Of a stretch of DNA of 64,000 nucleotides, positions 2,174 to 50,471 are shown piece after piece. The position numbers and the translations under genes were made by a program. Under the pieces are notes generated by a model that did no database searches, was not told the origin of the DNA, and worked only from the letters and a program-made list of their open reading frames with translations. This DNA is from Candidatus Omnitrophota bacterium. Its GTDB lineage: Bacteria > Omnitrophota > Gorgyraeia > B26-G9. The stretch spans positions 5,844 through 69,843 of the forward strand of contig JAZDHZ010000043.1 in assembly GCA_043805415.1 (NCBI GenBank), in the 5' to 3' direction. Positions within the stretch are counted from its first letter, which is position 1. Each line of letters begins with the position of its first letter.

Positions 2174-3592
2174 ATGAAAAAAATAATAAAACAATTGGCA
2201 AAAAAGATTTTGCTTATTTTCTTGGGGATTATATTTGCTGGTTTAGCAATTGAGCTGAGCTTACAGGCTTTTATCTGTTTTTCGGGATTAGCAAATCAGT
2301 TTGATCAAAAAACAAGGTTCAATTGTAAAAAAGTAAAAATACTCTGTCTTGGTGATTCGTTTACCTACGGCATAGGCGCGGAAAAGGGATTTAGCTACCC
2401 TGAACAGCTGCAAGTAATGCTGAATGAAAAACAAAACCAGCAGGAATTTGAGGTTATTAATTGCGGGCAGCCCGGATTTAATACTGCTTTAATTGTCCAA
2501 AGAGCTTTGTCCCGGATTAAAGACTTAAACCCAAATATTTTAATTATCATGACTGGAGCTAATGATTATTGGAATTTATCAGGTTTGGGCAAGGATACTG
2601 GGAACATTTTACTAGAATTAAACTCTTTGCTGTATAATTTCCGTTCTTACCGTTTAATCCAGATCGGCATGTCTAAGCTGATTCAAAAAAATAATGTTTA
2701 TCAGACCGGCATTAATCAGCTAAGACACAAGCTAAAGCCAAAGGAGTTCGAACAAGCCTTGGAATTCTTGCGCTTTATTAAATATTTCCGGCATTTTAAA
2801 CTTTCCCATAACTATGAACAAGCCTTGATTGCTTTAGATCAGGCCTTAAACCTGCGTTATTTTGATCAGCATGTTTTTGAACTATTGGATGAATTGTTTA
2901 TTGATTGGCGGGATTTTTCCAAAGCAATCTGCTATTATGAAAGACTTAATCAGTTAAATCCGGATGATGGAAACGTTGATATTCGTCTGGCGAGAATGTA
3001 TAAAGCGGTTCAGGACTATGAAAAGTCGCTTACATTTTACAAAAAAGTTCATGCGCTTGATCCGGATTCAGCAGAAGCAGCTGCCGGAATAATTAATGCG
3101 GATAATTTTTTAAAACAAAAAATAAGCAAAAACTTTACGATCAATCCTGATGAGCATTCGCTGGTTTGCAAAAACAATTTTAATTTAAAAGATATTTTTA
3201 GTGAAAACCTGGAATTAGCCGATGAAGATTATGCTTTATTGCTGGATATGATTTTACTGGTACAGAGACCCCAATTTATCAAAGAGAATAAATACCGAAA
3301 ATCTTTAGAGCCTATTTATATGAATAAATTGAAGTTGCTTGCTGATTTATGCGAACAGAAAAAGCTAAAAGTTTTATTTTTAAGTTATCCTAACTTTGTA
3401 AGAGACTATGCGTATAAAGGTTTGAAAAACAAAAATACTGAATTTATTGACCTGAGAGATAAATTCGCCCAAATCGTAAATCCCAAAAACAGAAGCGAAT
3501 ATGAATCGCTTGACGCCCATTGCACAGCAAAAGGTTATCGCCTGATTGCCGATATTGTAAGTGAGCAGATAATTAAGGATTTAGTAAAATAA
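2174..3592 (+). CDS. SGNH/GDSL-type hydrolase domain protein with TPR repeats, N-terminal membrane anchor
   Basis: GDSFTYG block I motif and GANDYW block III-like motif of SGNH hydrolases; TPR-like helical repeats in middle (YYERLNQLNPDD..., YKKVHALDPDS). Confidence 0.55.
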   Translation: MKKIIKQLAKKILLIFLGIIFAGLAIELSLQAFICFSGLANQFDQKTRFNCKKVKILCLGDSFTYGIGAEKGFSYPEQLQVMLNEKQNQQEFEVINCGQPGFNTALIVQRALSRIKDLNPNILIIMTGANDYWNLSGLGKDTGNILLELNSLLYNFRSYRLIQIGMSKLIQKNNVYQTGINQLRHKLKPKEFEQALEFLRFIKYFRHFKLSHNYEQALIALDQALNLRYFDQHVFELLDELFIDWRDFSKAICYYERLNQLNPDDGNVDIRLARMYKAVQDYEKSLTFYKKVHALDPDSAEAAAGIINADNFLKQKISKNFTINPDEHSLVCKNNFNLKDIFSENLELADEDYALLLDMILLVQRPQFIKENKYRKSLEPIYMNKLKLLADLCEQKKLKVLFLSYPNFVRDYAYKGLKNKNTEFIDLRDKFAQIVNPKNRSEYESLDAHCTAKGYRLIADIVSEQIIKDLVK

Positions 3593-3671
3593 GCTGTAAC
3601 GATAAACTCTCTAAGCAGCTTACGGAAAATGATTTGTCAAGGGGTATATTTTTCAGGCGATGTCTTTTTTA

Positions 3672-3700
3672 TTGACGCACTGACAGCAAGGGAGTATTAT
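3672..3700 (+). promoter_or_regulatory. sigma70-like promoter (TTGACG - 17 bp - TATTAT)
   Basis: Near-consensus -35 and -10 hexamers with 17-bp spacer read directly in sequence; a perfect 8-bp-arm palindrome atatcagaTGGtctgatat lies at 3857-3878 just upstream of the next CDS. Confidence 0.4.
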
Positions 3701-3919
3701 TTATTTATCATAATTAAGTAAAAAAAGTCTCTAATACCACAGTGGAGCGGAAGATGAGGCTAAAAATATAATAATATAAAGGCAATTTCTAAGTAAAGGG
3801 ATTGCTTTTTTATTTAGAGCCTTTAGCCAGGATTAAACGCCGCTAAATATAGAAATCTTATAATATCAGATGGTCTGATATTATATTTTAGATAGAGCTA
3901 ATAGCCAAAGGAGATACAT

Positions 3920-4333
3920 ATGAAAACAAAAGCAGGTTTGTGGATTGACCATAAGAAAGCGATTGTTGTAGCGATTACAGATAAAGGCGAAGAAGCGATT
4001 GAAGTAATAATATCAGAAACAGGCAAACAGCCCCGCCGTTCTGGGGATTGCCCGCTTAAGGGTGACTATGAATCACAGCAAGCTCCGGAAAGTGATGTCC
4101 GCCAAAAAACTTTGACCGGACAGCTAAATGTTTATTATAATGAAATAATCGCCAGCATTCGGCAGGCAGAATCTATTCTGATATTTGGCCCGGGTGAAGC
4201 AAAAACTGAACTGAAAAAACGCCTTGAAAAAAGCAGCCTAGGCAAACGCATCGTAGGCGTTGAAACAGTTGATAAGCTGACGGATCATCAGATTGCGGCA
4301 AAAGTACGAAAATATTTTTCAGAAGAAGCTTAA
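3920..4333 (+). CDS. hypothetical protein (possibly host-attachment/baeRF-like fold)
   Basis: 137 aa, good RBS aaaggagat 8 nt upstream of ATG; weak resemblance to release-factor-like small proteins, not verifiable here. Confidence 0.35.
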   Translation: MKTKAGLWIDHKKAIVVAITDKGEEAIEVIISETGKQPRRSGDCPLKGDYESQQAPESDVRQKTLTGQLNVYYNEIIASIRQAESILIFGPGEAKTELKKRLEKSSLGKRIVGVETVDKLTDHQIAAKVRKYFSEEA

Positions 4334-5515: not shown

Positions 5516-6078
5516 ATTTATCAAAAAAATAGATGATTTATTTTTTCGGCTTAAGTATAAAGACATCCGTATCTTATCTAATTAAAACAATCGCCTCTTT
5601 TTAAAAACATTATTTACCCAGCAAAACTTTTAAAAATCATGCTTAATTTGGCAAAATCATAATTATGTGATATAATTTAACTAAGATAAGAGTTTATAAA
5701 AGAATGAAATATGTGTTGAGGAAGAGGAAGGTAATTATTTAGTATTTTATATTTATAATAATTATTCTTAAATAACGCAATTGTTTAAACTTATACACCT
5801 GCCTCCTTACTCCTCAAAGTTTTTGGGAAATTGCATTTTTGTATTATGCTTAATTTTTCTAAACCTAAGCAAAGTGCAAGTCTTCGAAAAAAAGCGTTTA
5901 AAGAAATATCCGAAAAGGCAAACCTGTCGAAAGGCAGGGGCATTCTAGTGGAATAACTATAATCGTTAATTCGCTAGAATCCCTTAAAAGGTTTTTTAAG
6001 GGGCAAAGCTATGGATCTAAAGCATATGTGATGATCGCCTGGCTGACCGATAACGAGTTAACCTATATGCCAAGATTG

Positions 6079-6114
6079 CCAAGCTGCCGAATTATTAGCA
6101 GATTGGCTTTTTTT
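6079..6114 (+). terminator. orphan intrinsic terminator-like hairpin (ccaagctgc ... gcagattgg + T7)
   Basis: 9-bp stem with one mismatch followed by TTTTTTT; nearest upstream CDS ends 560 bp away, so it may end an unannotated small transcript. Confidence 0.35.
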
Positions 6115-6204: not shown

Positions 6205-9200
6205 ATGGATAAGCGAGCGCAATTAATTAAAATATGTTTAATTCTATATTGTCTTGAAGTTTTTATTCCGAATAGTATTTTTGCCCAACAATTGCCTGAG
6301 CAAACAGAGGCACAGACCGCTATTATTGAGGAATCATTCACTGATGGAAATGTGGAAACTCTGACCATTGCAGCTGACCCAGACACAATTCATTTGGAAT
6401 CAATGCTTTCTTCAGAGCAATTAGCGGAAACTTATGCGTATGCCTTTGACCTGCTTAATGACCAAGGCGCTGAGGATATAATTACTGCTTATCTTGAAAA
6501 TGGCTATAGTTTATCAGCTATTGGAGAAATCCTTAAAAATGCCAGCTTTTCTTTAGAAGATACTTTTAAGGCAATGGTTAATCATTTAGGGGAAGATTCC
6601 CTTGGGGAAATTATCGGAGCTCTGCTGGAAGCTAAATTTAAATCAGGGGATGTATTTAAAGTCGCGATAAATCACTTAAAGCAGGTAAGTCCTGAGCTTA
6701 CTGATAATCAAATTATTGAAAAAGTTTTGGGAACATCCGTAGATCCGGCTAATTTAAAAAGCTTGATGCAGGAGATTTTTATTGAAAAAATTTCCTCAGT
6801 AAGCGATCCGATTAAGTGCGATTTAGTTATAGCTATGATTGATTCGGGATTTAGCTTAAATGAAATAACTAGCGCATTAACTGAAAATGGTTTTAGTATT
6901 GATCAAATTGCTCAAATTTATAGTTTAGGCAGCATTGATATTGGTTTAACTTATGATCTATTGCTAAATACGCCGGGTTCGCAGGAAACGGATGTGATCA
7001 GAGCTTTACTTGCTTCATCTTACACTAAATCAGAAGTATTTGAGTGTATAGTCAATAAACTTTCTGGAACTAAAAGTGTTGAACAAATTGTGTCAACTAT
7101 CATGGGGCAGATTGATGTTGGCGGCCCAAGCGATGAACAATTAAACAATGCTATTGTTCTGTCTGGAGTATTACATGCTGGAGGAATAAGTATTTCTGAA
7201 ATAAGCGGAGCTTTTCTTTCCGCGGGATTTAATTTAGACAATGTTGTGGCTGTGCTTAACGGGATTGGAACTGCTCTGGATGATGCTTTTGCAACTTTGC
7301 TAGGCGCTAATGGCGGACAGAGTATTGCTGATGTGGCAGCAGCTTTAATCAGTAATGGATTTGATGTGCATGCTGTTTTCGCGCTAAGCACTGCAGAATT
7401 TAAAAACCAGGGAGTCGGCTTAACTCAGGTTGTCCAGGCACTTATTGGAACCATTGATCCTGAGAAAGGGCCGACTAAAAACCAGACAGATAATTCGCGG
7501 TTATTAGTAGATGTGTTGCTTAACGCAGATGACTCTTTACAGAACATAGCTGAAGCTTTTATTGCCAATGATTTTGGTTTGGAGAATACGGCTAAATTAT
7601 TTAAAAGCAATGGTGTATCAGCAGTGGATACTTATAATGCTTTAGTTGGGGCTACGGAAGGTGAATACGCGAGCGTAGCAGTGGCAATGACTACTATTGG
7701 TTTTACTGGCAGCATTGTTATTGAGCTTGCGGTAACAGATCTTAAGGCTCATGAATTCAGTAACGCGGATATTATGTCAATGCTAATTGGAACTGTAGAA
7801 GAAGGTAAAATTCCTACTAACCCTCAGATAACTATAGCGGGTTGCTTAACAAAAATTTTAATTGATCAGGGCGTTGCTTTGCCGGAAATCGGAGAAAATC
7901 TTATTAGCCAAGGCTTTAATTTAAATTATACAGCTAAAATATTTAAAAAAGCTGATGTTGATATCACTGAGGCATTTTCGGTTATGATTAAATTGGACGC
8001 CGAGGCAGGCTTTGATGTTGTATGCGCAGATTTGAAAGCCGCCGGCTACAGGGCCGCGGATATATTTAAAGAAGCGGTAACTGCCCTGCAGGAGCAAGGG
8101 CATGGTGTCAGTGAAATTATAAATATTTTAATCACTGCGGTTGATTCTGGAAAAAATGCTACAGGCGCGCAAATTAATAATGCTGGCGACTTGGTAAAGT
8201 ATTTAATTTCCGGGGGCAGCGCATCACAGGAAATTTGCGAAGGGCTCTTGGCTATTAATTTTTCTTTATCTGACATCGCGAAGGTAATGCGAAAAACAAG
8301 CGTAGAACTTGATGTTGTTTTTGCGGAAATCCTTGCTCTGGGTGGCGGGCAGGACATTGGTTTGGTTTCTGAGGCGCTTATTGCCGGAAGCTATGATCGT
8401 AATAGTGTTTTTCAAATAGCAATAGGAGAATTAAAAGCTCAAGATTACAGTACAGCCGCGATTATAAATACGCTAATCGGCGTGGTTGATCCCGAAGAAG
8501 GACAATCCGTTTATCAGAAAACTAATGCCCCATACTTGCTGCTGAGTTTATCTTTGGATGGGGGAAATTTAGAAGAAATCTGCGGCGGTTTTCTTAGTGC
8601 TGGTTTTAGTTTAGACGAAATAGCGTCAGCAACAAAAAAAGTCAACATTGATCTTATCCAAACCTATTCCGCGTTATTAAACGCGAATGGCGGTCAAGAT
8701 TCTGAAGCTGTGATTAACGCGCTTAATAATGCCGGATATGAAATATCGACCTTGTTCGAATTAATTGTTCCAGAGCTTCAGGGTAAGGATTACAGTACAG
8801 CGCAGATAATAACTTTCTTAATCGGCAATGTTAATCCAGTATCTGGACTTTCCGCTAAACAATTAGAAAGAGCGCATATTCTGGTTTATGTTCTAAGCGA
8901 AACAGGGGAATCTATAGAAAATATTTCCACAGCTATGGCTACTGCTGGATTTAAAGTCGAAGACAATGCGAAAATACTTTATCGGAAAATTGGAGATGCT
9001 GCTGAAGCCTACAATCTATTAACTAGTACTTACGGCCAAGAAAGTGTCACTACCATAGCTTTAGGAATGATTAATGCTGGATATGATATAGAATCTGTGC
9101 TCAATATAATTATTCCTATTTTCGAAGATCAAGAACTTTCCATGCCGGATATTATTAGCACAATTATCGGAGTAATCGCTTCAGAAAATAAGCCGACCTC

Positions 9201-11427
9201 TTTGCAGCTGAAACTGGCGGCAAAACTTACGGATATATTTACTGCTAAGGGAAATACTATTGAGGAAATTGCTCAGTGTTTATTTACTGTGGGAATTGGG
9301 CTGGATAATGTAGCGGTTATATTAAAAGCAAAAAGTACTGAGTTTGATAGTGCCTATAGCATTTTAACTAATCTTACCCAAGGGCAAAAACTTATGGATG
9401 TCGCATTTGCATTGATAAACAGCGGATTTGATAATGAAACAGTTGTCAGCACAGTTGTCGATGAACTTAAAATTCAGGGCAAGACTAATGCCGAAATTAT
9501 AAATCTTTTTATCGGAACTGTTGATCTTAAGAGCGGATTAACTGATACGCAGAAACAATGCGCATTGTCTTTAATAAAAAAATTGCGTGCTGAAGAAGGA
9601 GTATCCTTGTCAAGCATTTGCAATGACTTGGGCTCCACGGGATTAACTTTAGAAAAAATCCTTCCGCTTATGAAATCCGCGGAAATTAGTACAGAAGATA
9701 CTTTTAACGCGCTTTTAAGTTTTGACAAAGGACAAGATCCAGTGGAATTGGCAAATGTTTTAATGACTAATAATTATACGCATAAAGAAGTTTTTGAAGC
9801 ACTGGTAAATTATTTAGAGGGACTTGGTTCGGAATATAGTGTTAATAAGATAATTGAGATGGTAATCGGGGATATTGATGCTGAGAACGGATTAAGCGGG
9901 ATACAGCTGGGATACGCGCGTGATCTTGCTAATGCTTTTTTAGCAAATGATACTTCTTTAGAAGTCATTGCCACAGGATTTTTAAATCATGGGGTCACGC
10001 TTACAAATACCGTAATTATTTTAAAACTGGCTGAAGCGGAAGCAGAAGAAACTTACACGGCCCTGATGTCCGCATATGTGCCTAAGGAAGATGAAGTAGC
10101 GATTAGAGAGATAACATCAAAAATGATCAGCGCTGGGTACAGCTCTTTTACTGTTTATGCTTTTGCCGTTAAAAAGCTTGCTGATCAAGGGATCACTAAT
10201 GAAGTTGAAATAGTAGATATATTAATTGGACCGGTTAATTCCGAGGATTCCCAGCAACTTCGCAATGCCGGGAAACTATCGATGGTTATTAATTATAATA
10301 AAGCGATATTAACTGCCCAGAACACTGAGGAATCGTTTATTGTTTTATTTAAACAAGGATTTACCATAGAACAGATTACCCAGATGTTGAATGAAGGAGG
10401 AGTTAGCGACGAGCAAGTAAACGCGACCTTTTTGCAGGGATTTAGTGATATTGTTAAAGAATTAGTCAAATCAGGAATGAGCCCGGAGAGCATTGTTAAG
10501 TTACTTATTAATAAGGATAACAAACTAGATTATGTCCGGCCGCTTGCCGAACAGTTAAGACGCAATGATTTTGCCTCAACGGAAGTGCGCAGCGCTTTTT
10601 ATTCCATGCCTGGAGGCATGTACTCTTCGGATTGGGATCTTATCAGTAATGGTTTAGCAGATGCGGATGATTACCGGATTGAAAATACGCAAGAAGCTCA
10701 GACGATTAATTCGATGCTTAATGAAGGTCAGACTTTAACCGAGATTAGTCAGCATTTCGCGGAACAAGGATATCAGATGTCCTTTATCGGAAAACTGTTT
10801 AAAACTCTCGGACAATCAATTGAAGAAATATTTAATGCTTTGGATAATACTAAAACTTTTTATAGTGATGATCTTCTGGTTAATGATACTGCCGCTTCAA
10901 TTGTATTGCTAAAATATTATTCACACAAGGATGTTTTTACTTGCGCAACCCAATATTATAAGGAAAGGAACGTGAATTCTGAGGGGATTATTTTAAAGCT
11001 GATGAGTTCAGCGATTAAAGTTGATTCAACCAACGTTATCGCGGATACAATTGTAGGAGAGTATTACGCGTCTAAAGCCGATATTCAGACACAGTCTTTT
11101 GTAACTCTTATGGATGCTGGATATTCGGTTATTTGGATAAAAGACGCATTATTGAAAAAGAATTTTACTGCCGAAGCCATTGAAGCATTTATCCAAAATG
11201 GTGACAACTTTAAAGCGATATACCAGGGATTATCTGCCCAGGGATTTAGCGCCAGCAATATTGTTAAGCGTTTTGAAGTTGCGGAAAGCCCGGGAGAATA
11301 TACCGTACTCCTGGCTGAAAATATGATTAAAGATGGTCTCAGTGAAACGGAAGTAACCAGCATTCTTTTAAGTTATAAGGCTGATCCTGATTTAATAAAA
11401 CAAGGCATTGCCAGAGGATTAGCTTGA
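6205..11427 (+). CDS. giant secreted repeat protein (1740 aa), about 10 tandem ~140-aa alpha-helical modules
   Basis: N-terminal signal peptide (LIKICLILYCLEVFIPNSIFAQQ); recurring motifs GFSL(D/N)EI, NGGQDS..V(I/A)..AL...GY, ELK.QDYSTA.II..LIG.VDP..G repeated through the protein; uninterrupted 5.2-kb ORF with RBS gggggcaaaaaATG. Confidence 0.7.
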   Translation: MDKRAQLIKICLILYCLEVFIPNSIFAQQLPEQTEAQTAIIEESFTDGNVETLTIAADPDTIHLESMLSSEQLAETYAYAFDLLNDQGAEDIITAYLENGYSLSAIGEILKNASFSLEDTFKAMVNHLGEDSLGEIIGALLEAKFKSGDVFKVAINHLKQVSPELTDNQIIEKVLGTSVDPANLKSLMQEIFIEKISSVSDPIKCDLVIAMIDSGFSLNEITSALTENGFSIDQIAQIYSLGSIDIGLTYDLLLNTPGSQETDVIRALLASSYTKSEVFECIVNKLSGTKSVEQIVSTIMGQIDVGGPSDEQLNNAIVLSGVLHAGGISISEISGAFLSAGFNLDNVVAVLNGIGTALDDAFATLLGANGGQSIADVAAALISNGFDVHAVFALSTAEFKNQGVGLTQVVQALIGTIDPEKGPTKNQTDNSRLLVDVLLNADDSLQNIAEAFIANDFGLENTAKLFKSNGVSAVDTYNALVGATEGEYASVAVAMTTIGFTGSIVIELAVTDLKAHEFSNADIMSMLIGTVEEGKIPTNPQITIAGCLTKILIDQGVALPEIGENLISQGFNLNYTAKIFKKADVDITEAFSVMIKLDAEAGFDVVCADLKAAGYRAADIFKEAVTALQEQGHGVSEIINILITAVDSGKNATGAQINNAGDLVKYLISGGSASQEICEGLLAINFSLSDIAKVMRKTSVELDVVFAEILALGGGQDIGLVSEALIAGSYDRNSVFQIAIGELKAQDYSTAAIINTLIGVVDPEEGQSVYQKTNAPYLLLSLSLDGGNLEEICGGFLSAGFSLDEIASATKKVNIDLIQTYSALLNANGGQDSEAVINALNNAGYEISTLFELIVPELQGKDYSTAQIITFLIGNVNPVSGLSAKQLERAHILVYVLSETGESIENISTAMATAGFKVEDNAKILYRKIGDAAEAYNLLTSTYGQESVTTIALGMINAGYDIESVLNIIIPIFEDQELSMPDIISTIIGVIASENKPTSLQLKLAAKLTDIFTAKGNTIEEIAQCLFTVGIGLDNVAVILKAKSTEFDSAYSILTNLTQGQKLMDVAFALINSGFDNETVVSTVVDELKIQGKTNAEIINLFIGTVDLKSGLTDTQKQCALSLIKKLRAEEGVSLSSICNDLGSTGLTLEKILPLMKSAEISTEDTFNALLSFDKGQDPVELANVLMTNNYTHKEVFEALVNYLEGLGSEYSVNKIIEMVIGDIDAENGLSGIQLGYARDLANAFLANDTSLEVIATGFLNHGVTLTNTVIILKLAEAEAEETYTALMSAYVPKEDEVAIREITSKMISAGYSSFTVYAFAVKKLADQGITNEVEIVDILIGPVNSEDSQQLRNAGKLSMVINYNKAILTAQNTEESFIVLFKQGFTIEQITQMLNEGGVSDEQVNATFLQGFSDIVKELVKSGMSPESIVKLLINKDNKLDYVRPLAEQLRRNDFASTEVRSAFYSMPGGMYSSDWDLISNGLADADDYRIENTQEAQTINSMLNEGQTLTEISQHFAEQGYQMSFIGKLFKTLGQSIEEIFNALDNTKTFYSDDLLVNDTAASIVLLKYYSHKDVFTCATQYYKERNVNSEGIILKLMSSAIKVDSTNVIADTIVGEYYASKADIQTQSFVTLMDAGYSVIWIKDALLKKNFTAEAIEAFIQNGDNFKAIYQGLSAQGFSASNIVKRFEVAESPGEYTVLLAENMIKDGLSETEVTSILLSYKADPDLIKQGIARGLA

Positions 11428-11610
11428 TCAGAGACTAAACTGATTATTTAGCAATAAATCTATAGTGTATAAACAAAAATAAAAAAAGGAGCATTTTTTA
11501 ATGACTCCTTTTTTTATTGCTTTATCTAATAATTAAAACTGGATTTACTGAACAACAGATTGACAGCTATTTAGACACCTCAAAAAAAATCACTCTTAAA
11601 CATTAAAATG

Positions 11611-11639
11611 TTGAAATTGATAAATATTTTACATATAAT
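11611..11639 (+). promoter_or_regulatory. sigma70-like promoter for tRNA-Ala (TTGAAA - 17 bp - TATAAT)
   Basis: Consensus-like hexamers 17 nt upstream of mature tRNA 5-prime end. Confidence 0.4.
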
Positions 11640-11655
11640 GAGTTAGAAACTTATC

Positions 11656-11731
11656 GGGGCAGTGGCTCAGCTGGGAGAGCACCACGTTCGCAACGTGGGG
11701 GTCGTGAGTTCGAATCTCATCTGCTCCACCA
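11656..11731 (+). tRNA. tRNA-Ala (anticodon CGC)
   Basis: Cloverleaf folds by eye: 7-bp acceptor stem with G3:U70 Ala identity pair, anticodon loop TTCGCAA, T-loop GTTCGAATC, encoded CCA. Confidence 0.85.
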
Positions 11732-11737
11732 TATAAA

Positions 11738-11769
11738 AGAGGCTATTTTTACAATAGTCTCTTTTTTTT
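11738..11769 (+). terminator. rho-independent terminator after tRNA-Ala
   Basis: agaggctatt / aatagtctct stem (one mismatch) followed by T8. Confidence 0.5.
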
Positions 11770-12022
11770 ACGTCGATAAAGCAAGAAAAAGCTCACGGAT
11801 GCTCTACTAAAATAAGAACTTCTCAATTACTACCAATTTATATCAATTATGCTGTATTTTGCTGGATTATAGTCATTATTTAGTCACTAGTCACCAGTAT
11901 GTATGATGCTCAGGAAGCTTAATTATTAGGCTATTTAATTTTTACTCAGGTATATATGGCGAATCAGCTAAAAACAGGGTATACTTAATTGTTTTTAATA
12001 AACCAATATAAAATAGAATGAT

Positions 12023-15606: not shown

Positions 15607-15722
15607 TTATGGCAAATAGCCATTATGAGTTAGTATGAGTCATTATGAGTTAGTATAAGATATGATAATCAAGTAAATATTAAGTCAAAATCTAATAAGT
15701 CAGGATTGGAGTTTAAATATAA

Positions 15723-32130: not shown

Positions 32131-33191
32131 TTTATAGCTATATTTTTATTTTTAGTTTATTTGCTTCCTTGGTCCTGGTAAGCGCTTTTCGCCGCCTGGC
32201 TATCCGCTGGCAGGTTGTTGATCTGCCCCAGGCGCAGAGAAAAATTCATACCCAGTCCACGCCGCTTTTAGGCGGAGCAGCAATGTACGCGGCATTTACT
32301 TTAACCATTGGCCTGAATCTGCTCCTGATTTATTTTTTCTTTGCCAAAGGAATGCTTCCTGAATACATCACTGTGTATCTAGCCGGGATAAAATTAATTA
32401 CACTCCAGCTGAGCGCGATTCTAGGCACAACTTTTGTTTTAGTGCTTATGGGAATTTATGATGATATTAAAGGCCTTGGCGCTAAAACTAAATTAGGCAT
32501 TGAAATAATCCTGGCCAGCATTGTTTTTTTCAGCGGAATCAAAATCAGCTTATTTATCCATAATCCGTTTATTTGCTGGCTGATTACGGTTTTATGGATT
32601 GTCGGGATCAGCAATGCTTTTAATTTACTTGATAATATGGATGGCTTGAGCAGCGGGATTGCTTTAATCTCCAGCATTATATTTTTTCTGGTTGCTGTGT
32701 CTGGCCACCATTTTTTTGTGGCCACGATTCTGGCTTGTTTTTCCGGAGTAATGCTCGGGTTTTTATGGTTTAATTTTCCGCCGGCCAAGGTATTTATGGG
32801 TGATGCCGGCAGTTTATTCATTGGCTATACTTTGAGCCTGCTGACAATCATCAATACTTATTATACCCATTCCGCGCCAACTATCGCGCCGGTAATCATG
32901 CCTTTATTAATCATGGCTGTGCCGATTTTTGATACCTTGTCCGTGATCCGCATCCGTTTAAAAAATAAAGTATCGATTTTTCAGGCTGATAAAAATCATC
33001 TTTCGCACCGCCTGATGCAGCGGGGAATGAGCGTAAAACAGACATTGTTTTTTATTTATCTGTTAAGTTTCGCCATTGGACTGGGCGGATTATTGCTTAC
33101 TGCTTTAAACGCGCAGGGATGTTATCTAGTTTTAATTCAGGCAATCTGCATTATTTTAATCATTGCTATTTTAGAAGGGAATAAACAATGA
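32118..33191 (+). CDS. polyprenyl-phosphate N-acetylhexosamine-1-phosphate transferase (WecA/MraY family)
   Basis: NAFNLLDNMDGL and FMGDAGSLFIGY motifs diagnostic of MraY/WecA superfamily; about 10 TM helices. Confidence 0.8.
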   Translation: MWKLIYSYIFIFSLFASLVLVSAFRRLAIRWQVVDLPQAQRKIHTQSTPLLGGAAMYAAFTLTIGLNLLLIYFFFAKGMLPEYITVYLAGIKLITLQLSAILGTTFVLVLMGIYDDIKGLGAKTKLGIEIILASIVFFSGIKISLFIHNPFICWLITVLWIVGISNAFNLLDNMDGLSSGIALISSIIFFLVAVSGHHFFVATILACFSGVMLGFLWFNFPPAKVFMGDAGSLFIGYTLSLLTIINTYYTHSAPTIAPVIMPLLIMAVPIFDTLSVIRIRLKNKVSIFQADKNHLSHRLMQRGMSVKQTLFFIYLLSFAIGLGGLLLTALNAQGCYLVLIQAICIILIIAILEGNKQ

Positions 33192-35140
33192 TCCGGCTGA
33201 TCTTGGCAATGCTTGTCATAGTCTTATGCTGCTTTTGGCTGGTCTGGCGAAGATTCGACAAAAATATTCCCAATGCCGTACGCTTAATTATTATTTCAAC
33301 CTGCGGGCTTTTTTTCTTAAGAACCATAATCGGTGAAACTTATTTATTTTCCGCTCAGCTGATTTTTCAGGTATTGATTTTTTTTCTTGGTTTTGTTTAT
33401 CTTTTATACCTCTGCATCGGCAAACAACAGCTCGCTAATCAGCCGGTTTGCTTTAGCTTGAATTTATTTGATAAATTATTTTTTCTGTTTATAAGTTTTT
33501 TAACCATAAGCGTTTGGTTTTCGGTTAATAAAGAAGCGAGTATTGCCACGCTGGTTTATTTTTCCTCGCTGTATGTCTGGTATTGGCTGATTGCCAATCT
33601 GCCGCAAGCCAAAAGCATTAACCGGATTTTTCAAGCCATAATTTTTCTTGCCTGCGGTTTATTGATCAGCTATGGTTTTTATCAATATCATATTGGTTTT
33701 CAAACCATGCGCGAGTTTTTAGCTAAAAACCCGGAGTATATGATCCAATCCCGGGAATTTATCCGCAGGATGCAGTCAAACGTTGTATTCGCGACTTTTA
33801 TTTATGCCCCGGCATTTGGCAGCTATTTGACCATGATGTTTTTAACTATCCTGGGATTTTGTTTTGCCCAAGGCAATCTGTTTCAGCCGGCATTTAAACT
33901 GCGATTATGTTTAAAATATGTGCTGCTTTTATTAATCATTCCTTTACTGATTTTAACCAAAGCCAAAGCAGCCTGGCTGGGTTTAGGCATTGGCCTGATT
34001 TGTTTTTTTCTGCTGATTAAACCTAAAACCAGGCAAAAAGGTTTTCTGATCGGAACGCTGCTTAGTTTACTGGGATTATTTACCCTAAGTTTTATCTTGA
34101 TCAGCAGTTCTGATAAAATTCATTTACCCAAACTGGAAAATTTTCTGGTTTCTTTTAAGGTAAGACTGGAATACTGGAAGGCAGCTTTTGCTATGATCAA
34201 ACAGCGGCCTTTGCTTGGCTTTGGCCCTGGAACATTCGGCAGCGTGTATCCTTTGTTTAAAACCCTTAATGCTGAAGAAACAATTATGTGCCACAATAGT
34301 TTTCTTCAGATCTGGGCAGAGGGAGGCAGTTTTGTATTTCTGGCTTTTTGTTTATTTTGGCTGAGCTTTATCCAGCAGGCAATAAGCAGGATTAAAAAGA
34401 TCTTTGGAGCCAGCCGGTTTATCAGTGCTGGCTTATTCTCCGCTATCTTAAGTTTCTTATTTGTCAATCTGCTTGATTTCAGCTTATATGACGGACAAAC
34501 TGCTTTGATTGGTTTTGGGCTTATCGGCTTATTGCAGTATCAGCTTAACTCTGAGCCAAAACTCAATACTGAACATATGCCTAAGCGCAAACTGCATAAA
34601 CTGCTGATTATTTGTATTGGCTGTTTATTTTTAACTTGTGTTCTGGGTTATTCAGGTTTAGTTTATTGCGCGCGGATTTTTGATGATAAAGCTTCTTTTG
34701 AATATAAAAATGCCAGGCTTGAACAGGCATTAGCTTATACCAATAAAGCCATTGGTTTACAGGGGTTTAGCGGAAAATATTATTATCATAAAGGGATTAT
34801 TCTGGAAAAAATGATTTTAAATCCTAAAATCAGCCCTGAGCAGAAAAAGGAATTATTAAACCAGGCAGTTAAAAATTTTGAGCAGGCAGTAAAATTGGAC
34901 TGGTTTATGCCGCATTATCATTATAAATTAGCCACGGTTTTATATTATTTAAATCAGCCGGAAGCTAAACAGCGCGCAGGCAGAGAATTTGAACAAGCCG
35001 CTGCTTTATATCCGGTAAATCCGTTTTATCACGAGCAGCTTGCCGAGTTTTATAATATAAACGGCAAAATTGGTGACGCGCAGAAACAGCAGGCAATTGC
35101 CGCGGAAATGAAAAAATATTTTAAAACCGGAACAAGATAA
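33188..35140 (+). CDS. Wzy_C/O-antigen ligase-family protein with C-terminal TPR repeats (candidate O-oligosaccharyltransferase)
   Basis: Polytopic membrane domain with GFGPGTFGSVYP...HNSFLQIWAEGG Wzy_C signature; C-terminal TPR-like helices. Confidence 0.65.
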   Translation: MIRLILAMLVIVLCCFWLVWRRFDKNIPNAVRLIIISTCGLFFLRTIIGETYLFSAQLIFQVLIFFLGFVYLLYLCIGKQQLANQPVCFSLNLFDKLFFLFISFLTISVWFSVNKEASIATLVYFSSLYVWYWLIANLPQAKSINRIFQAIIFLACGLLISYGFYQYHIGFQTMREFLAKNPEYMIQSREFIRRMQSNVVFATFIYAPAFGSYLTMMFLTILGFCFAQGNLFQPAFKLRLCLKYVLLLLIIPLLILTKAKAAWLGLGIGLICFFLLIKPKTRQKGFLIGTLLSLLGLFTLSFILISSSDKIHLPKLENFLVSFKVRLEYWKAAFAMIKQRPLLGFGPGTFGSVYPLFKTLNAEETIMCHNSFLQIWAEGGSFVFLAFCLFWLSFIQQAISRIKKIFGASRFISAGLFSAILSFLFVNLLDFSLYDGQTALIGFGLIGLLQYQLNSEPKLNTEHMPKRKLHKLLIICIGCLFLTCVLGYSGLVYCARIFDDKASFEYKNARLEQALAYTNKAIGLQGFSGKYYYHKGIILEKMILNPKISPEQKKELLNQAVKNFEQAVKLDWFMPHYHYKLATVLYYLNQPEAKQRAGREFEQAAALYPVNPFYHEQLAEFYNINGKIGDAQKQQAIAAEMKKYFKTGTR

Positions 35141-35197
35141 AGAGCAGTCACAGGTCACAAGACACAAGGTCACAAGCTGCAAGGTCAAATGGCTAAA

Positions 35198-35285
35198 CAG
35201 GGGATTGCTTTTTTGTTGTAATGACGGACAGAAAACTTTGCTTCGAGTAGGGCAAAGCTAAAATAAATAGTCGCTGTCCCTATTT
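35198..35285 (+). repeat. 88-bp structured repeat, copy 1 (nested hairpins GGACAG..CTGTCC and CTTTGC..GCAAAG)
   Basis: Near-identical to 36716-36803 (2-3 mismatches). Confidence 0.6.
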
Positions 35286-35301
35286 TTACTAAAGAGAACC
35301 A

Positions 35302-36057
35302 ATGGGTATATTTGATTTTTTTGTTAAGAAGAAAAAATTTAATCCTGATGGAAAAGTTGCTTGCAAGACTTGCGGTAATATGATTTTACCTATTACAGCC
35401 AATCTCACGGATAATCGATGTAGGCCTTGTTTTAATGCAGTACGCAGAAAACCGCCTTTTGTTGGTGCTTTTCACGATGGATTGGCTACAATTGAACTTG
35501 ACTATAGCGCTCCCAAAGGATTTGTGAATAAAGATAATGTTATTGTGATCAAGCCACGATTTCCTAGGGCATCTAATTTTAGCGAGGGTTTGGCTTGTGT
35601 CTGTGATCCTGAATCATACAAGTATGGATATATTGATAAAAAGGGAAATTATATTATCAAACCCCAGTTTAAAACTGCCGGCGATTTTCATGAGGGACTG
35701 GCTGCGTTTACGCTTGGAGGAACTGAATCTTGGTGCGGGCAGCTTTGGGGATTCATTAATCAGCAAGGTAATGTGGTAATTAAACCAATATATCGTTTTA
35801 ATTCTCCTGATTACACCCCTTATTTTAGCGAGGGGCTGGCGGTAGTTGCCCTAGATTTTCACCTCGGAGAAGCAATACCGGAAATAGATATGGATGTCAT
35901 TGATAGATGGGACCTTGTTTATATTGATAAAAAAGGAGATATTCTTATTCCCGGACCATTTAAAAAAGCATCTGCCTTTAAAAATGGAGTAGCCGAAGTA
36001 GTTATCAAAGGGCGTAATACTACTATTCGTAAAGATGGTTCTATCCAAGAGCAATAA
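35302..36057 (+). CDS. Zn-ribbon + WG-repeat (PF14903-like) protein
   Basis: N-terminal CKTCGN...CRPC zinc ribbon; repeated YIDKKGNYIIKPQF / WGFINQQGNVVIKPIY / YIDKKGDILIP WG-repeat units. Confidence 0.55.
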   Translation: MGIFDFFVKKKKFNPDGKVACKTCGNMILPITANLTDNRCRPCFNAVRRKPPFVGAFHDGLATIELDYSAPKGFVNKDNVIVIKPRFPRASNFSEGLACVCDPESYKYGYIDKKGNYIIKPQFKTAGDFHEGLAAFTLGGTESWCGQLWGFINQQGNVVIKPIYRFNSPDYTPYFSEGLAVVALDFHLGEAIPEIDMDVIDRWDLVYIDKKGDILIPGPFKKASAFKNGVAEVVIKGRNTTIRKDGSIQEQ

Positions 36058-36169
36058 TAATCAGATAAAATGTGGTTTAGAATAGGGGCGAAATCTAAAA
36101 TTCCCCTCTAAAAAAACAGCGGGACAAGCAAGACCTAATCACAATTGTTTTGGGAAGGAAGGAATTGAA

Positions 36170-36580
36170 ATGCAAAAAGTACCATGTGCTATATGCGAAG
36201 TCATGATTTTAACTGGAACAGCAGACAAAACAGGTGGTTTTTGTATTCCTTGTTATAGAAAAAACTTATTTGAGCAAAAAGAATCATTCATTTTAAAGGC
36301 TCAGACCTCTTATGATCAAAAAATGGATAGAGATGAAATAGTGAGCGTATTTTTATTTCGGCAAGAACAAGATTTGCTTAGTGCTTGCAATCGTCTTACC
36401 AAAGAACTTTCCATTTGGTTTGAACTGCGTCGTTCCACAGTAGATGGACAGTTCTCTTATTGGATTGTTGTTAGATACAAGGATGTCAATATCGCGGCTA
36501 AAGCAATTAAGGATTTTGAAGATTTATCACACCCGTTTTATGGCCGTGGAGTTATAGATCAATCAGAATTTTATAAATAG
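36170..36580 (+). CDS. hypothetical protein with N-terminal Zn-ribbon
   Basis: CAICEV...CIPC motif; 136 aa; lies between the two 88-bp repeats. Confidence 0.4.
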   Translation: MQKVPCAICEVMILTGTADKTGGFCIPCYRKNLFEQKESFILKAQTSYDQKMDRDEIVSVFLFRQEQDLLSACNRLTKELSIWFELRRSTVDGQFSYWIVVRYKDVNIAAKAIKDFEDLSHPFYGRGVIDQSEFYK

Positions 36581-36715
36581 TGAAATAAACATCATTGACG
36601 TACTGGGAGTAAAATAGTATTATTTATATATCAAAATACGAATCTTGATCTTACTATGTATTAAGGAATCGGAAGATGACGGCAAAATTAAAATAATCCA
36701 GCAATCTCTAAATAA

Positions 36716-36803
36716 AGGGGATTGCTTTTTTGTTGTAATGACGGACAGAAAACTTTGCTTCGAGTAGGGCAAAGCTAAAATAAATAGCCGCTGTCCCTAT
36801 TTA
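36716..36803 (+). repeat. 88-bp structured repeat, copy 2
   Basis: Direct repeat of 35198-35285. Confidence 0.6.
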
Positions 36804-36887
36804 TTGAAAAAGTAGACAATCCCTTCATACAATGGTAAGATATCGATAATCTTAGCGCAATTAATAATATTATAAAGGAGGAAAACA

Positions 36888-37325
36888 ATGGCAAATATAC
36901 TGGTAATTCATGGGCCGAATTTAAATCTTTTAGGCGAAAGAGAGCCGGATATCTACGGTAAGGTGACTCTGGAAACTATAAATAATAATATTTTAAAATG
37001 GGCAAAGAAAAATGGTGTTAAGATCGATATCATCCAATCAAATCATGAAGGTGAAATTGTCGATATAATCGGCAAAGCCAATTCCACTTATAATGCTTTA
37101 CTGATCAATCCCGCGGCTTATACTCATACCAGCGTGGCGATCCGCGACGCGATCAGCGCTGTGGGCATTCCTACAGTGGAAGTACATTTATCAAATATCT
37201 ATGCCCGGGAAGAATTCCGGCATACTTCTTTAATCGCACCGGTCAGTTCCGGTCAGGTATCAGGATTTGGTCAGCATAGTTATATTTTGGGATTAGAAGC
37301 GATATTAACGATTATAAACAAATAG
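36888..37325 (+). CDS. aroQ: 3-dehydroquinate dehydratase, type II
   Basis: [22 protein letters not shown]-terminal signature; 145 aa. Confidence 0.85.
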
Positions 37326-47917: not shown

Positions 47918-47962
47918 ATAAATGATTCGGCCTGTGACTCATGATATAATGTAGAATAGAAA

Positions 47963-48086
47963 ATAGCGATTAGCGGTTAGGAAAAGCAAAAAGGGTTTGG
48001 ATAATAGCTGATAGCTAATGGCCGATAGATAAAAAACAAAGAAAAAAGAGTATTGGGTAGTTGGTTCTTTTCACGCAATACGCGAT
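47963..48086 (+). repeat. intergenic repeat family, copy A (upstream of HIT-guaA)
   Basis: agcgattagcgg...ggataatagctgatagctaatggccgataga...ggttggttcttttcacgcaatacgcgatac, about 85% identical to 50208-50347. Confidence 0.55.
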
Positions 48087-48182
48087 ACTCACGGCGCAAT
48101 ACTGAGAATAAAAGACGGAAAACAGAAGACTAAAAAACATTCTACGATAACAAAAAACGGAATTTTGCGGAAAAGAGGCAAA

Positions 48183-48650: not shown

Positions 48651-50185
48651 AAGAATTAATCATAATCATTGATTTTGGTTCACAGTATAGTCAGCTTATT
48701 GCCCGCAGAGTCCGCGAATATAATGTCTATTGCGAGGTGCATCCGCCGCAAATCAGCGCGGCAAAGCTTCAGGAACTTAATCCTCTGGGCATAATTTTCT
48801 CCGGCGGACCGAAAAGTCTTACCCAGAAAAACGCGCCTAAAAGCGACCCGGCAATATTTGATTTAAACATACCTTTGCTCGGAATTTGTTATGGCATGCA
48901 GCTGATCGCGCATCATTTTAAGGGAAATGTCGGCAAATCATCAGCCCGGGAATACGGCAGAACCGAATTATTAATTGATGATGGAAAAGACTTGTTTAAA
49001 GGTCTGGGCAAAAAAATCATTACCTGGATGTCGCATGAAGACAAAGTAAAAAAACTGCCCAAGGATTTTATCGCTTTAGCGCGTACGGCTAATTCCAGCA
49101 TTGCCAGTTTTGCTAATCGAAGAAAAAAAATATTCGGCGTGCAGTTTCATCCGGAAGTTGTCCATACACCCAAGGGAAATATTATTCTGAGGAATTTTCT
49201 GTTTAATGTCTGCGGCTGTAAAGGGCTTTGGACCATGCAGTCATTTATTCATGACTCGATCAAGCAGATCAAGCAGCAGGTGGGAGATGACTCAGTTGTC
49301 TTAGGTCTAAGCGGCGGAGTTGACTCTTCAGTGGCCGCGGTATTATTGCATAAAGCTTTGGGAAAAAAACTGCATTGTATTTTTGTAAACAATGGCTTAC
49401 TCAGAGACGGGGAAGCGGAACAGGTAAGAAACACCTTCGCGAAACATTATAAGATGAATTTTCACTATGCTGAGGCGGAAAAACTTTTCCTGGATAAACT
49501 AAAAAACATTACTGATCCGGAAAAGAAAAGAAAAATCATCGGACGTTTATTTATCGAGGTTTTTGACGCTTATGCCAAGAAACTTAAAAATATAAAATTT
49601 CTCGCGCAGGGCACGCTTTACCCGGATGTAATTGAAAGCCAGTCGGTATTCGGCGGACCAAGTTCAATGATCAAAAGCCATCATAATGTCGGCGGCTTAC
49701 CCAAGAAAATGAAATTAAAATTAGTTGAACCGCTCAAATTTTTATTTAAAGACGAAGTCAGACTGCTGGGCAAAGAGCTCAAAATTCCAGCAGAGTTAAT
49801 TGAGCGCCATCCTTTTCCCGGTCCTGGCCTGGCTATCCGGATATTAGGCGCGGTAAGCAAGGAAAGGCTGGATATCCTCCGCCAGGCGGATAAACGGTTT
49901 ATTGAAGAGATTAAGGCCGCGGGCTTATATCATCAGGTTTGGCAGGCTTTAGCAGTTTTATTGCCGGTAAGAAGTGTCGGGGTTATGGGCGATGAAAGAA
50001 CATATGAGAATACGATTGCTCTGCGGGCAGTAACCAGTGTTGATGGAATGACTGCTGATTGGGCAAAATTACCCATGGATATGTTAGGCATAGTTTCCAA
50101 CAAAATCATAAACGAAGTTAAAGGAGTTAACAGAGTAGTCTATGATATCAGTAGTAAGCCTCCGGCAACTATTGAGTGGGAATAA
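48647..50185 (+). CDS. guaA: GMP synthase (glutamine-hydrolysing)
   Basis: GATase CYGMQL catalytic Cys, ATP-PPase SGGVDSSV P-loop, C-terminal dimerisation domain ending IEWE. Confidence 0.9.
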
Positions 50186-50207
50186 AACAGCGATTAGCGG
50201 ATAGAAA

Positions 50208-50347
50208 AAAGCAGAAGACAGAAAAAGCAAAAAGCACTTGGCTAATAGCTTATAGCTGATGGTCGACAGATAAAAAATCAAAAAAAAGAGTATGGGGTGG
50301 TTGGTTCTTTTCACGCAATAGGCGATACATAATCATAAGTTTAATTT
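50208..50347 (+). repeat. intergenic repeat family, copy B (downstream of guaA); partial inverted copy at 50404-50455
   Basis: Direct repeat of copy A; the segment tcgaccattagctat...tgatacgcgatac at 50404-50455 is the reverse complement of its atagctgatggtcga core plus the gatacgcgatac tail. Confidence 0.55.
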
Positions 50348-50471
50348 TTATTTGGAGTTTGTAGGTTTGGATTTATTTAGGATTTAGCGTTTAGGTTTTT
50401 TAAAAAAGTATCGACCATTAGCTATTGACTATTAGTTTGTTGATACGCGATACAGAAAATTAAGAGATATT

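Follow-up and report, generated by a model that had tools for sequence, protein, structure and literature searches.

Near-identical direct repeats bracketing a two-gene insert in a hypervariable islet of an Omnitrophota genome

What kind of element is a short repeat that stands, almost unchanged, on both sides of a pair of small genes? The question is raised by a 64-kb stretch of DNA from a Candidatus Omnitrophota bacterium (GenBank assembly GCA_043805415.1, contig JAZDHZ010000043.1, positions 5,844 to 69,843 of the forward strand), which is called the window here and to which all coordinates refer unless a relative is named. The repeat, R, is present in two copies, R1 and R2. An original prediction, made from the letters alone, had taken the near-identity of the copies to imply recent duplication or homogenisation and had offered three identities for the unit: a miniature inverted-repeat transposable element (MITE), a cassette recombination site or a structured RNA. 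Our analysis favours, with moderate confidence, the view that R arose when recombination recently duplicated a piece of cassette-boundary DNA, the copies of which now flank a 1.43-kb two-gene insert in a hypervariable islet between a Wzy_C gene and aroQ. R is best seen as an ordinary recombination footprint, a fresh instance of a feature type already known, and neither as a new RNA class, nor as a new mobile element, nor as a replication origin. It would show that a member of an uncultivated phylum acquired a cassette very recently, and the hotspot in which it lies is of more interest than R itself.

The repeat, its two modules and the islet

It was found by repeat search of the window that R1 and R2 are direct repeats of 87 nucleotides (nt), identical at 86 of the 87 positions and spaced by 1517 nt. 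The lone mismatch is T35271 against C36788, and the likeness runs about 6 nt further to the left (CTAAA) if one indel is allowed. The copies had been described as 88 bp long with two to three differences; the near-identity is real, while the length is 87 nt, the difference is a single one and the start given for the first copy, 35198, was one base out. Searching the window with 35-mers and 25-mers derived from R, at up to three mismatches, gave no third site, the chance expectation being none. That the repeats flank a gene pair was borne out as well, as a gene cassette is bracketed in a region of gene-content turnover, and the recent duplication or homogenisation read from their near-identity is supported by the 86/87 match.

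The position of this cassette becomes clear by comparison. The AroQ encoded in the window has 100% identity to a protein from a Candidatus Omnitrophota metagenome-assembled genome. Contigs of relatives were recovered through their AroQ homologs, and about 100 kb of related contigs were compared with the window. Homology with one relative, L101, stops at the stop codon of the Wzy_C gene in the pairwise alignment. On the other side a block of promoter and 5' untranslated region (5' UTR), 77-89% identical, lies directly upstream of aroQ in every islet-bearing relative, and pairwise alignments place the right border at about 36806-36811, that is 4-9 nt past the end of R2. With its borders at the Wzy_C stop codon and at the aroQ promoter, the hypervariable islet takes in R1, R2 and both genes. 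The islet contains genes A and B in the window. It contains a HATPase gene, an HSP90-like gene and genes of 688 and 203 amino acids (aa) in L101 (AroQ 94% identical). In L097 (AroQ 95%) it holds an HSP90-like gene, RHH/ParE, four small secreted proteins (lipoprotein), a transglutaminase-core protein and an 86-aa fragment of a transposase of the RAYT family (REP-associated tyrosine transposase, where REP stands for repetitive extragenic palindromic). A HEAT-repeat protein, a HerA-like ATPase (PADLOC HerA, E-value 2e-32) and two small genes occupy it in L103 (AroQ 94%). The site is empty in the more distant L111 (AroQ 81%) and L112/L113 (76%), where 18 and 160 nt separate Wzy_C from aroQ. The downstream order aroQ-pepP-efp-accB-accC is kept in all recovered relatives. 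The content of the hotspot is wholly different between genomes whose AroQ proteins are 94-95% identical.

Judged from its sequence, R is a composite of two modules that are found separately in these relatives, and not a self-contained element. Its first 28 nt (AGGGGATTGCTTTTTTGTTGTAATGACG) come from the Rho-independent terminator of a module which we call element E, and comprise the 3' arm, the U-tract and another 12 nt. Positions 1-28 of R match the end of E at 100% in L097 (3484-3511) and at 96% in L103 (3010-3037), and the sequence 3' of this piece is unrelated to R in both. The remaining 59 nt, M3', comprise GGACAG, a CTTTGC...GCAAAG hairpin and AATAGTCGCTGTCCCTATTT, with the tail CCCTATTTTT. 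M3' (R positions 34-87) is 75% identical to L101 2853-2911, where it comes directly after a CACAAG array (L101 2823-2847) and lacks the 28-nt E piece. The last 20 nt of R occur alone in L097 (8232-8251 and about 3120). Among the sequences compared, E is joined to M3' in the window only, and there twice.

Element E is a promoter-leader-terminator module of about 150 nt with a paralog in the window and copies in the relatives. A partial match to the repeat had been pointed out at about 3798; it is real (3798-3811) and is the terminator of the paralogous module of about 145 nt, which aligns as 36594-36734 against 3671-3814 (68% over 145 nt, E-value 2e-12, blastn). Both copies have a sigma-70-like promoter, some 60-80 poorly conserved nt with a short open reading frame (ORF) and then an intrinsic terminator. 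With nhmmer models, six copies of the promoter module (E-values 1e-11 to 1e-15) and seven of the terminator module were found in the window and the relatives. The ATG of the leader ORF MTAKLK aligns with the starts of real genes or of short ORFs in relatives. The terminator of 10 pairs, four of them GC, with a 7-nt loop and TTTTT (terminator scan) has the marks of a Rho-independent terminator and is the sole consensus structure across three E copies. E was also considered as a structured small RNA, and this was dropped since nothing other than the terminator is conserved. In L101 the portion of E with the promoter and 5' UTR precedes real genes, and in L097 the 3' end and terminator of a gene for a 228-aa protein share 86% identity with the last 52 nt of E; from these two matches E has the look of a general promoter-leader-terminator unit of cassettes, or of a cassette that was gutted.

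Further variants of E were seen. Its paralog in the window carries a five-codon ORF (MRLKI) and sits between a GDSL-lipase/TPR gene and an uncharacterised gene for a 137-aa protein. In the E module of L103 (2680-3037) the leader ORF is tandemly duplicated (MSIKQPPNNQAAIS...), and an insert of about 80 nt, consisting of a heptad array and a CCCTTTTTTT tail, separates the two arms of its terminator.

The left edge of R2 falls in the loop of the E terminator; at R1 nhmmer aligned just the 3' half of the terminator model (35189-35226), and there is no 5' arm adjacent to it. The occurrence of the same E/M3' junction twice, with one difference in 87 positions, indicates that one copy of R was derived from the other, and recently. 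Homologous recombination between boundary modules would be the most likely route. A circular cassette carrying R could have integrated Campbell-style into a resident R. Another possible course is that neighbouring cassettes, each ending in E-M3', were homogenised by unequal exchange or gene conversion, and that the upstream part was then lost in a deletion between the array past the stop codon and the loop of the terminator, by way of a CTAAA microhomology common to the two. Joined to the arm upstream of it, R2 would make up a complete terminator, which could end transcripts from the E promoter as well as any read-through from genes A and B. R1 is without a canonical 5' arm, and so transcription of the Wzy_C gene probably reads into gene A. 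Given 87 bp of such identity, RecA-type recombination between R1 and R2 could delete the cassette, and its occasional RecA-dependent loss should be possible.

Several points weigh against this account. R is carried by one genome only, and neither a cassette-less strain nor an excised circle was seen; we infer both the direction and the mechanism of the duplication. Full-length copies of R or a dedicated recombinase could lie outside the 64 kb. R1 may not be a dead half-terminator, as its 3' arm pairs with 35093-35102 at -12.7 kcal/mol against -12.9 for the true arm, a pairing only marginally beyond chance (4% of shuffles equal it, p about 0.04), and alternatively with 35139-35149. Such long-range pairing resembles the L103 terminator of the same family with its insert of about 80 nt in the loop. 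R also contains a weak -10-like TAAAAT, by which it could have a promoter role.

Table 1. Positions of the repeat, its modules and the neighbouring genes in the window.
Feature	Position	Strand	Evidence or remark
Wzy_C/TPR (O-antigen-ligase-like) gene	33188..35140	+	Pfam Wzy_C, E-value 1e-20; stop codon is the left islet border
Heptad/15-nt tandem array	35141..35198	+	AGAGCAG TCACAG GTCACAAG ACACAAG GTCACAAG CTGCAAG GTCAAATGG, then CTAAACA
R1 (repeat copy 1)	35199..35285	+	Half terminator 35199-35226 and M3' module 35227-35285
Gene A (251 aa), N-terminal Zn ribbon and four WG repeats	35302..36057	+	PF14903 WG_beta_rep, E-value 9e-36
Gene B (136 aa), Zn ribbon (residues 2-45) and rare 85-aa domain (residues 52-135)	36170..36580	+	
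E promoter module	36590..36645	+	TTGACG-17-TATTAT at 36595-36623 (promoter scan)
Putative six-codon ORF MTAKLK in the E leader	36676..36696	+	Inferred by reading the sequence
E Rho-independent terminator	36700..36731	+	AGCAATCTCT-AAATAAA-GGGGATTGCT, then TTTTT
R2 (repeat copy 2)	36716..36802	+	Starts with the E terminator's 3' arm and U-tract (16 nt)
aroQ promoter and 5' UTR, conserved	36806..36887	+	Right islet border
aroQ, type II 3-dehydroquinate dehydratase	36888..37325	+	PF01220, E-value 5e-59; conserved right flank
E paralog (promoter, leader, terminator)	3661..3821	+	blastn; nhmmer matches for the promoter and terminator modules

Recombination site, mobile element or structured RNA

Near-identical direct repeats around an insert, at a hotspot that is empty in relatives, are what Campbell-type or unequal recombination leaves behind, as in attL/attR-like pairs, and such an arrangement predicts excision by recombination between the repeats. 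R could also be imagined as a site-specific recombination site, att-like or similar to the attC of integrons, that is used at the Wzy_C-aroQ hotspot by a recombinase encoded elsewhere in the genome. The repeats bracket the cassette exactly, R2 ends close to the right islet border, the locus is an insertion hotspot and, in the genome L115, a repeat follows every gene in the manner of a cassette array. However, no integrase, transposase or recombinase domain was found in more than 40 ORFs of the window. R is missing at the islet junctions of relatives that carry other cassettes, and the right borders of these vary by about 10-35 nt. The identity over 87 nt far exceeds a typical crossover core, and the left edge of R lies in a terminator loop. 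The insert, unlike those of attL/attR-like systems, encodes no integrase and is 1.43 kb long with two genes, no circular form or R-only empty allele was observed, and R is pieced together from generic boundary modules where such systems have the end of a tRNA gene or a defined core. Nor does the locus look like an integrated prophage or integrative and conjugative element, which would carry its own integrase between direct repeats and often sit at a tRNA gene: a WG-repeat protein and an orphan protein are all that is encoded in the insert, and the tRNAs lie away from it, at 11656 and 44987. The cassette recombination site of the original prediction is improbable in view of the missing recombinase, the relatives' junctions and the left edge.

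Integron cassette arrays and clusters of attC sites lacking integron-integrases (CALINs) have homogeneous attC sites, which are imperfect palindromes with a GTTRRRY core, and integron arrays are associated with intI. The locus is similar to these in having a repeat after the cassette and small, promoter-poor, uncharacterised ORFs, and L115 has one repeat per gene. It differs in that there is no intI in the window. R is no imperfect palindrome: there are no inverted arms spanning it (repeat search) and no RYYYAAC...GTTRRRY pair of ends (reading of the sequence). The repeats hold ordinary intrinsic terminators, and the borders of the islet vary.

Mosaic intergenic repeats abound in the lineage, among them the E copies, the related modules at 47950 and 50183 and the heptad arms at 50241 and 50409 that are described below, and a RAYT fragment flanked by heptad arrays lies in the same islet of L097. 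R could on these grounds be taken for a dispersed non-autonomous mobile or repetitive intergenic element, a MITE or a mosaic like the bacterial interspersed mosaic elements (BIMEs) and REPs, that landed twice. Against this, the repeat search found none of the terminal inverted repeats or target duplications that a MITE would have, and the flanks of the two copies differ. Two copies of R are present in 64 kb, and about 100 kb of related contigs yielded no full-length one. A scan of the contigs of GTDB representative genomes for GGACAG-N4-CTTTGC-N10-GCAAAG gave, among the 80 of 96 matching stretches that were listed, hits in unrelated taxa at chance level with no extended likeness to R, the source genome not being among the matches. 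Metagenome contigs scanned with the E-terminator pattern (the 3' end of E) returned just two contigs, both already recovered, and viral contigs scanned with the inner-hairpin pattern returned nothing. BLAST of 35141-36887 against phage and plasmid records gave no match. The independent occurrence of the halves of R in relatives argues against R as a unit. With neither inverted ends nor target duplication, and with no full-length copy among the matches listed by the pattern scans, a MITE-like element or other dispersed repeat is unlikely here.

Enterobacterial BIMEs and REPs and the pneumococcal BOX are mosaic intergenic repeats, and REP units are GTAG-headed palindromes. The Omnitrophota modules are similar to these in that promoter-like, terminator, hairpin and heptad-array parts recombine variously just past stop codons, and in the RAYT fragment flanked by arrays in the L097 islet. 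On the other hand R is found twice only and at this locus only, the modules found here are concentrated in variable islets and the units are heptads that end in NAG.

It had further been proposed that each copy folds as nested hairpins. Both stems do exist, GGACAG (35226-35231) with CTGTCC (35274-35279) and CTTTGC (35236-35241) with GCAAAG (35252-35257), and both are present in the minimum-free-energy fold. Their stability, on the other hand, is at the level of shuffled sequences, with z values of -1.1 for R1 in its context, -2.0 for R2 in its context and -1.3 for M3' alone; a z of -2.9 was reached only by the R2 context that includes the complete terminator. R would have to be, under the structured-RNA proposal, a cis-regulatory or small RNA that controls gene A and aroQ. 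The two stems, the position of R upstream of two genes and the retention of the inner hairpin in L101 are in its favour. The stem of the L101 hairpin is unchanged in sequence and displaced by one base in register, however, and therefore gives no covariation evidence: against L101, the only diverged homolog, there were no compensatory changes, and three of the six pairs of the outer stem are broken. Rfam gave nothing over R at the gathering threshold in the whole window, nor at E-values up to 10 in 35000-37000 and 3550-3950. A weak match to manA-II (E-value 9.9) was set aside as reflecting the terminator only. R2 lies upstream of aroQ's own conserved promoter, and R is absent upstream of the aroQ and gene A orthologs in the relatives compared. 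A structured RNA is, on all these counts, very improbable, and the duplication of boundary DNA is preferred.

Post-stop arrays and the exchange of modules

Immediately upstream of R1 there is a short tandem array, whose three GGTCA half-sites with a period of about 15 bp had been called iteron-like. The half-sites (35153, 35168 and 35183) and the period were confirmed by Tandem Repeats Finder (35147-35187, period 15, 2.4 copies, score 51), which also gives an alternative period of 7 with a score of 33. It could be that the array GGTCA(CAAG) represents iterons or operator sites for a replication initiator or regulator, with R as part of a control region; the exact 15-nt period of the three units and the 96% conservation of the array in L101 would fit such sites. 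There is, however, no rep or regulator gene nearby, and GGTCACAAG is not over-represented in the 64-kb window. Iterons are several direct repeats of 17-22 bp by a rep gene, accompanied by an AT-rich region or DnaA boxes, and here there are 2.4 copies of a 15-nt unit and no rep gene in the window. The conserved stretch (35159-35183 against L101 2823-2847, over 25 nt) stands in L101 behind a different, unrelated gene. The array resolves into units of 7-8 nt ending in NAG, like other arrays past stop codons, and has no complementary partner (35147-35190), the region folding no better than shuffles (z 0.01). The iteron label did not survive, and a replication or operator role has very little likelihood.

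Similar arrays with unrelated units (CGATTAG CGGATAG GGTTTAG GGTATAG; CTGATGG CTTATGG CTAATAG) are found in many places between genes, in the window as in the relatives, and begin just past stop codons. TAG-N4-TAG-N4-TAG forms eight clusters where 0.8 are expected from dinucleotide shuffles (at most three in 30 shuffles), mostly on the sense strand. By its units and position the GGTCA array belongs with these heptad (NAG-N4) arrays, which appear to be a class of post-stop intergenic sequence spread across the lineage. In the window, L097, L101, L103 and L112, TAG-N4 arrays are about ten-fold enriched, examples being found at 47957, 50188 and 50378 of the window, at 4908 in L101, at 2761 and 2942 in L103 and at 7245 in L097.

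Some heptad arrays form long hairpins with inverted partners, as at L101 795-885 (z -4.3). In the window, inverted repeats of heptad units, about 28 nt long (24/28), lie at 50241-50268 and 50409-50436 around some 140 nt, in a hairpin (fold z -2.4) which is similar to a MITE or to a hairpin-forming pair of REPs (REPIN). The regions 47950-48090, after a metallophosphoesterase gene, and 50183-50330, after guaA, share a module of about 140 nt, made of heptad arrays (AGCGATTAGCGGxTAG..., GGCTAATAGCTxATAGCTxATGG...) and a conserved GAGTATxGGGTxGTTGGTTCTTTTCACGCAATA tail.

The RAYT fragment in the L097 islet (7329-7589, also in L098, L099 and L100) is a truncated protein that matches NF047646 with an E-value of 1.4e-8, below the family cut-off owing to the truncation. 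In REP/REPIN-RAYT systems short intergenic repeats flank a RAYT gene and form inverted doublets. The fragment lies directly upstream of the aroQ promoter and has TAG-N4 arrays on both sides, from which the heptad arrays may be the REP-like repeats of this lineage. A full-length RAYT was not found in the 64-kb window.

HutP binds XAG motifs at a terminator (PMC2425495). The UAG-N4-UAG spacing of the Omnitrophota arrays equals that of the XAG motifs for hexameric HutP beside a terminator (PMC2425495), but no HutP-like gene was identified, and the window's own array has AAG and spacers of 4-5 nt. The genomes of Nostoc and Beggiatoaceae are known to contain contiguous heptamer repeats (bioRxiv 10.1101/2022.06.06.494920). 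These are likewise intergenic arrays with a period of 7 nt, whereas the Omnitrophota arrays often pair with inverted partners in long hairpins.

It could be possible that the lineage runs a modular platform for cassette exchange at the Wzy_C-aroQ hotspot, and perhaps elsewhere too, with the boundary modules as substrates for swapping. The standard modules would be the promoter-leader-terminator unit, tails of the M3' type and the heptad NAG-N4 arrays past stop codons. A RAYT-like enzyme or homologous recombination could do the swapping, R would be a fresh exchange junction, and UAG-N4 arrays beside or inside terminator loops could bind a HutP-like ring protein by which termination is tuned. 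We treat this wider scheme as speculative and would give it only a small chance. The islet, the shared promoter and terminator modules and the heptad arrays make a tractable case of accessory-gene shuffling in Omnitrophota.

Cassette genes and other features of the window

The cassette was expected to consist of a gene with a Zn ribbon and WG repeats and a second Zn-ribbon gene, and this holds. The WG-repeat domain of gene A is well matched (Table 1), its ribbon is of the form CxxC...CxxC, and the ribbon of gene B is homologous to it (41% over 39 aa, E-value 1e-5). A promoter scan showed no recognisable promoter for gene A itself. Gene A has just one close homolog (69% aa identity), which lies in L115 in another genomic context, and the DNA likeness is confined to the ORF (35301-36048). 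Look-ups of the exact protein sequences of AroQ and gene A gave no entry. Gene B has no Pfam match, and a word-indexed search of 5.8 billion proteins returned no homolog beyond gene B itself. With phmmer, one homolog of its C-terminal domain was found, in L119, along with many matches to the ribbon only. In L119 the domain is a stand-alone gene of 85 aa (1764-2034), 70% identical at the protein level and 75% at the nucleotide level over 36319-36589. Gene B thus appears to be a fusion of a widespread N-terminal Zn ribbon with a domain that stands alone elsewhere. A single-sequence AlphaFold model of gene B had a predicted local distance difference test (pLDDT) score of 55, too low for a fold search. 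PADLOC gave no match for genes A and B, and the composition of the cassette has no clear foreign signature. Gene A and the C-terminal domain of gene B are each found elsewhere, with DNA homology limited to the coding sequence, and mosaicism at the level of cassettes is, as read from these alignments, general in the relatives compared.

L115 is a different Omnitrophota genome, in which (7810-11977) an intergenic repeat of about 120 nt follows each of five consecutive genes, the gene A homolog included. Its five copies in 4.7 kb are 66-94% identical and bracket the WG-repeat gene. The repeat is made up of a conserved 50-nt box, a terminator with a 13-bp stem and TTTTTTGTTGGTGTATCATGA, and the motif after the terminator resembles TTTTTTGTTGTAATGAC of R.

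More than 40 ORFs of the window are housekeeping or type IV pilus genes. A cyclic di-GMP-I riboswitch aptamer was matched at 5907-6091 on the forward strand (41.6 bits, E-value 1e-4, above the Rfam gathering score); the match is stretched, covering 185 nt against a model of 87 positions, and lies upstream of an ORF (6205-11427, 1740 aa) with no significant Pfam domain. At 15624-15656 a 10-nt tandem repeat (TATGAGTTAG, 3.3 copies, score 52) is found in an intergenic region upstream of a Na+/H+ exchanger gene.

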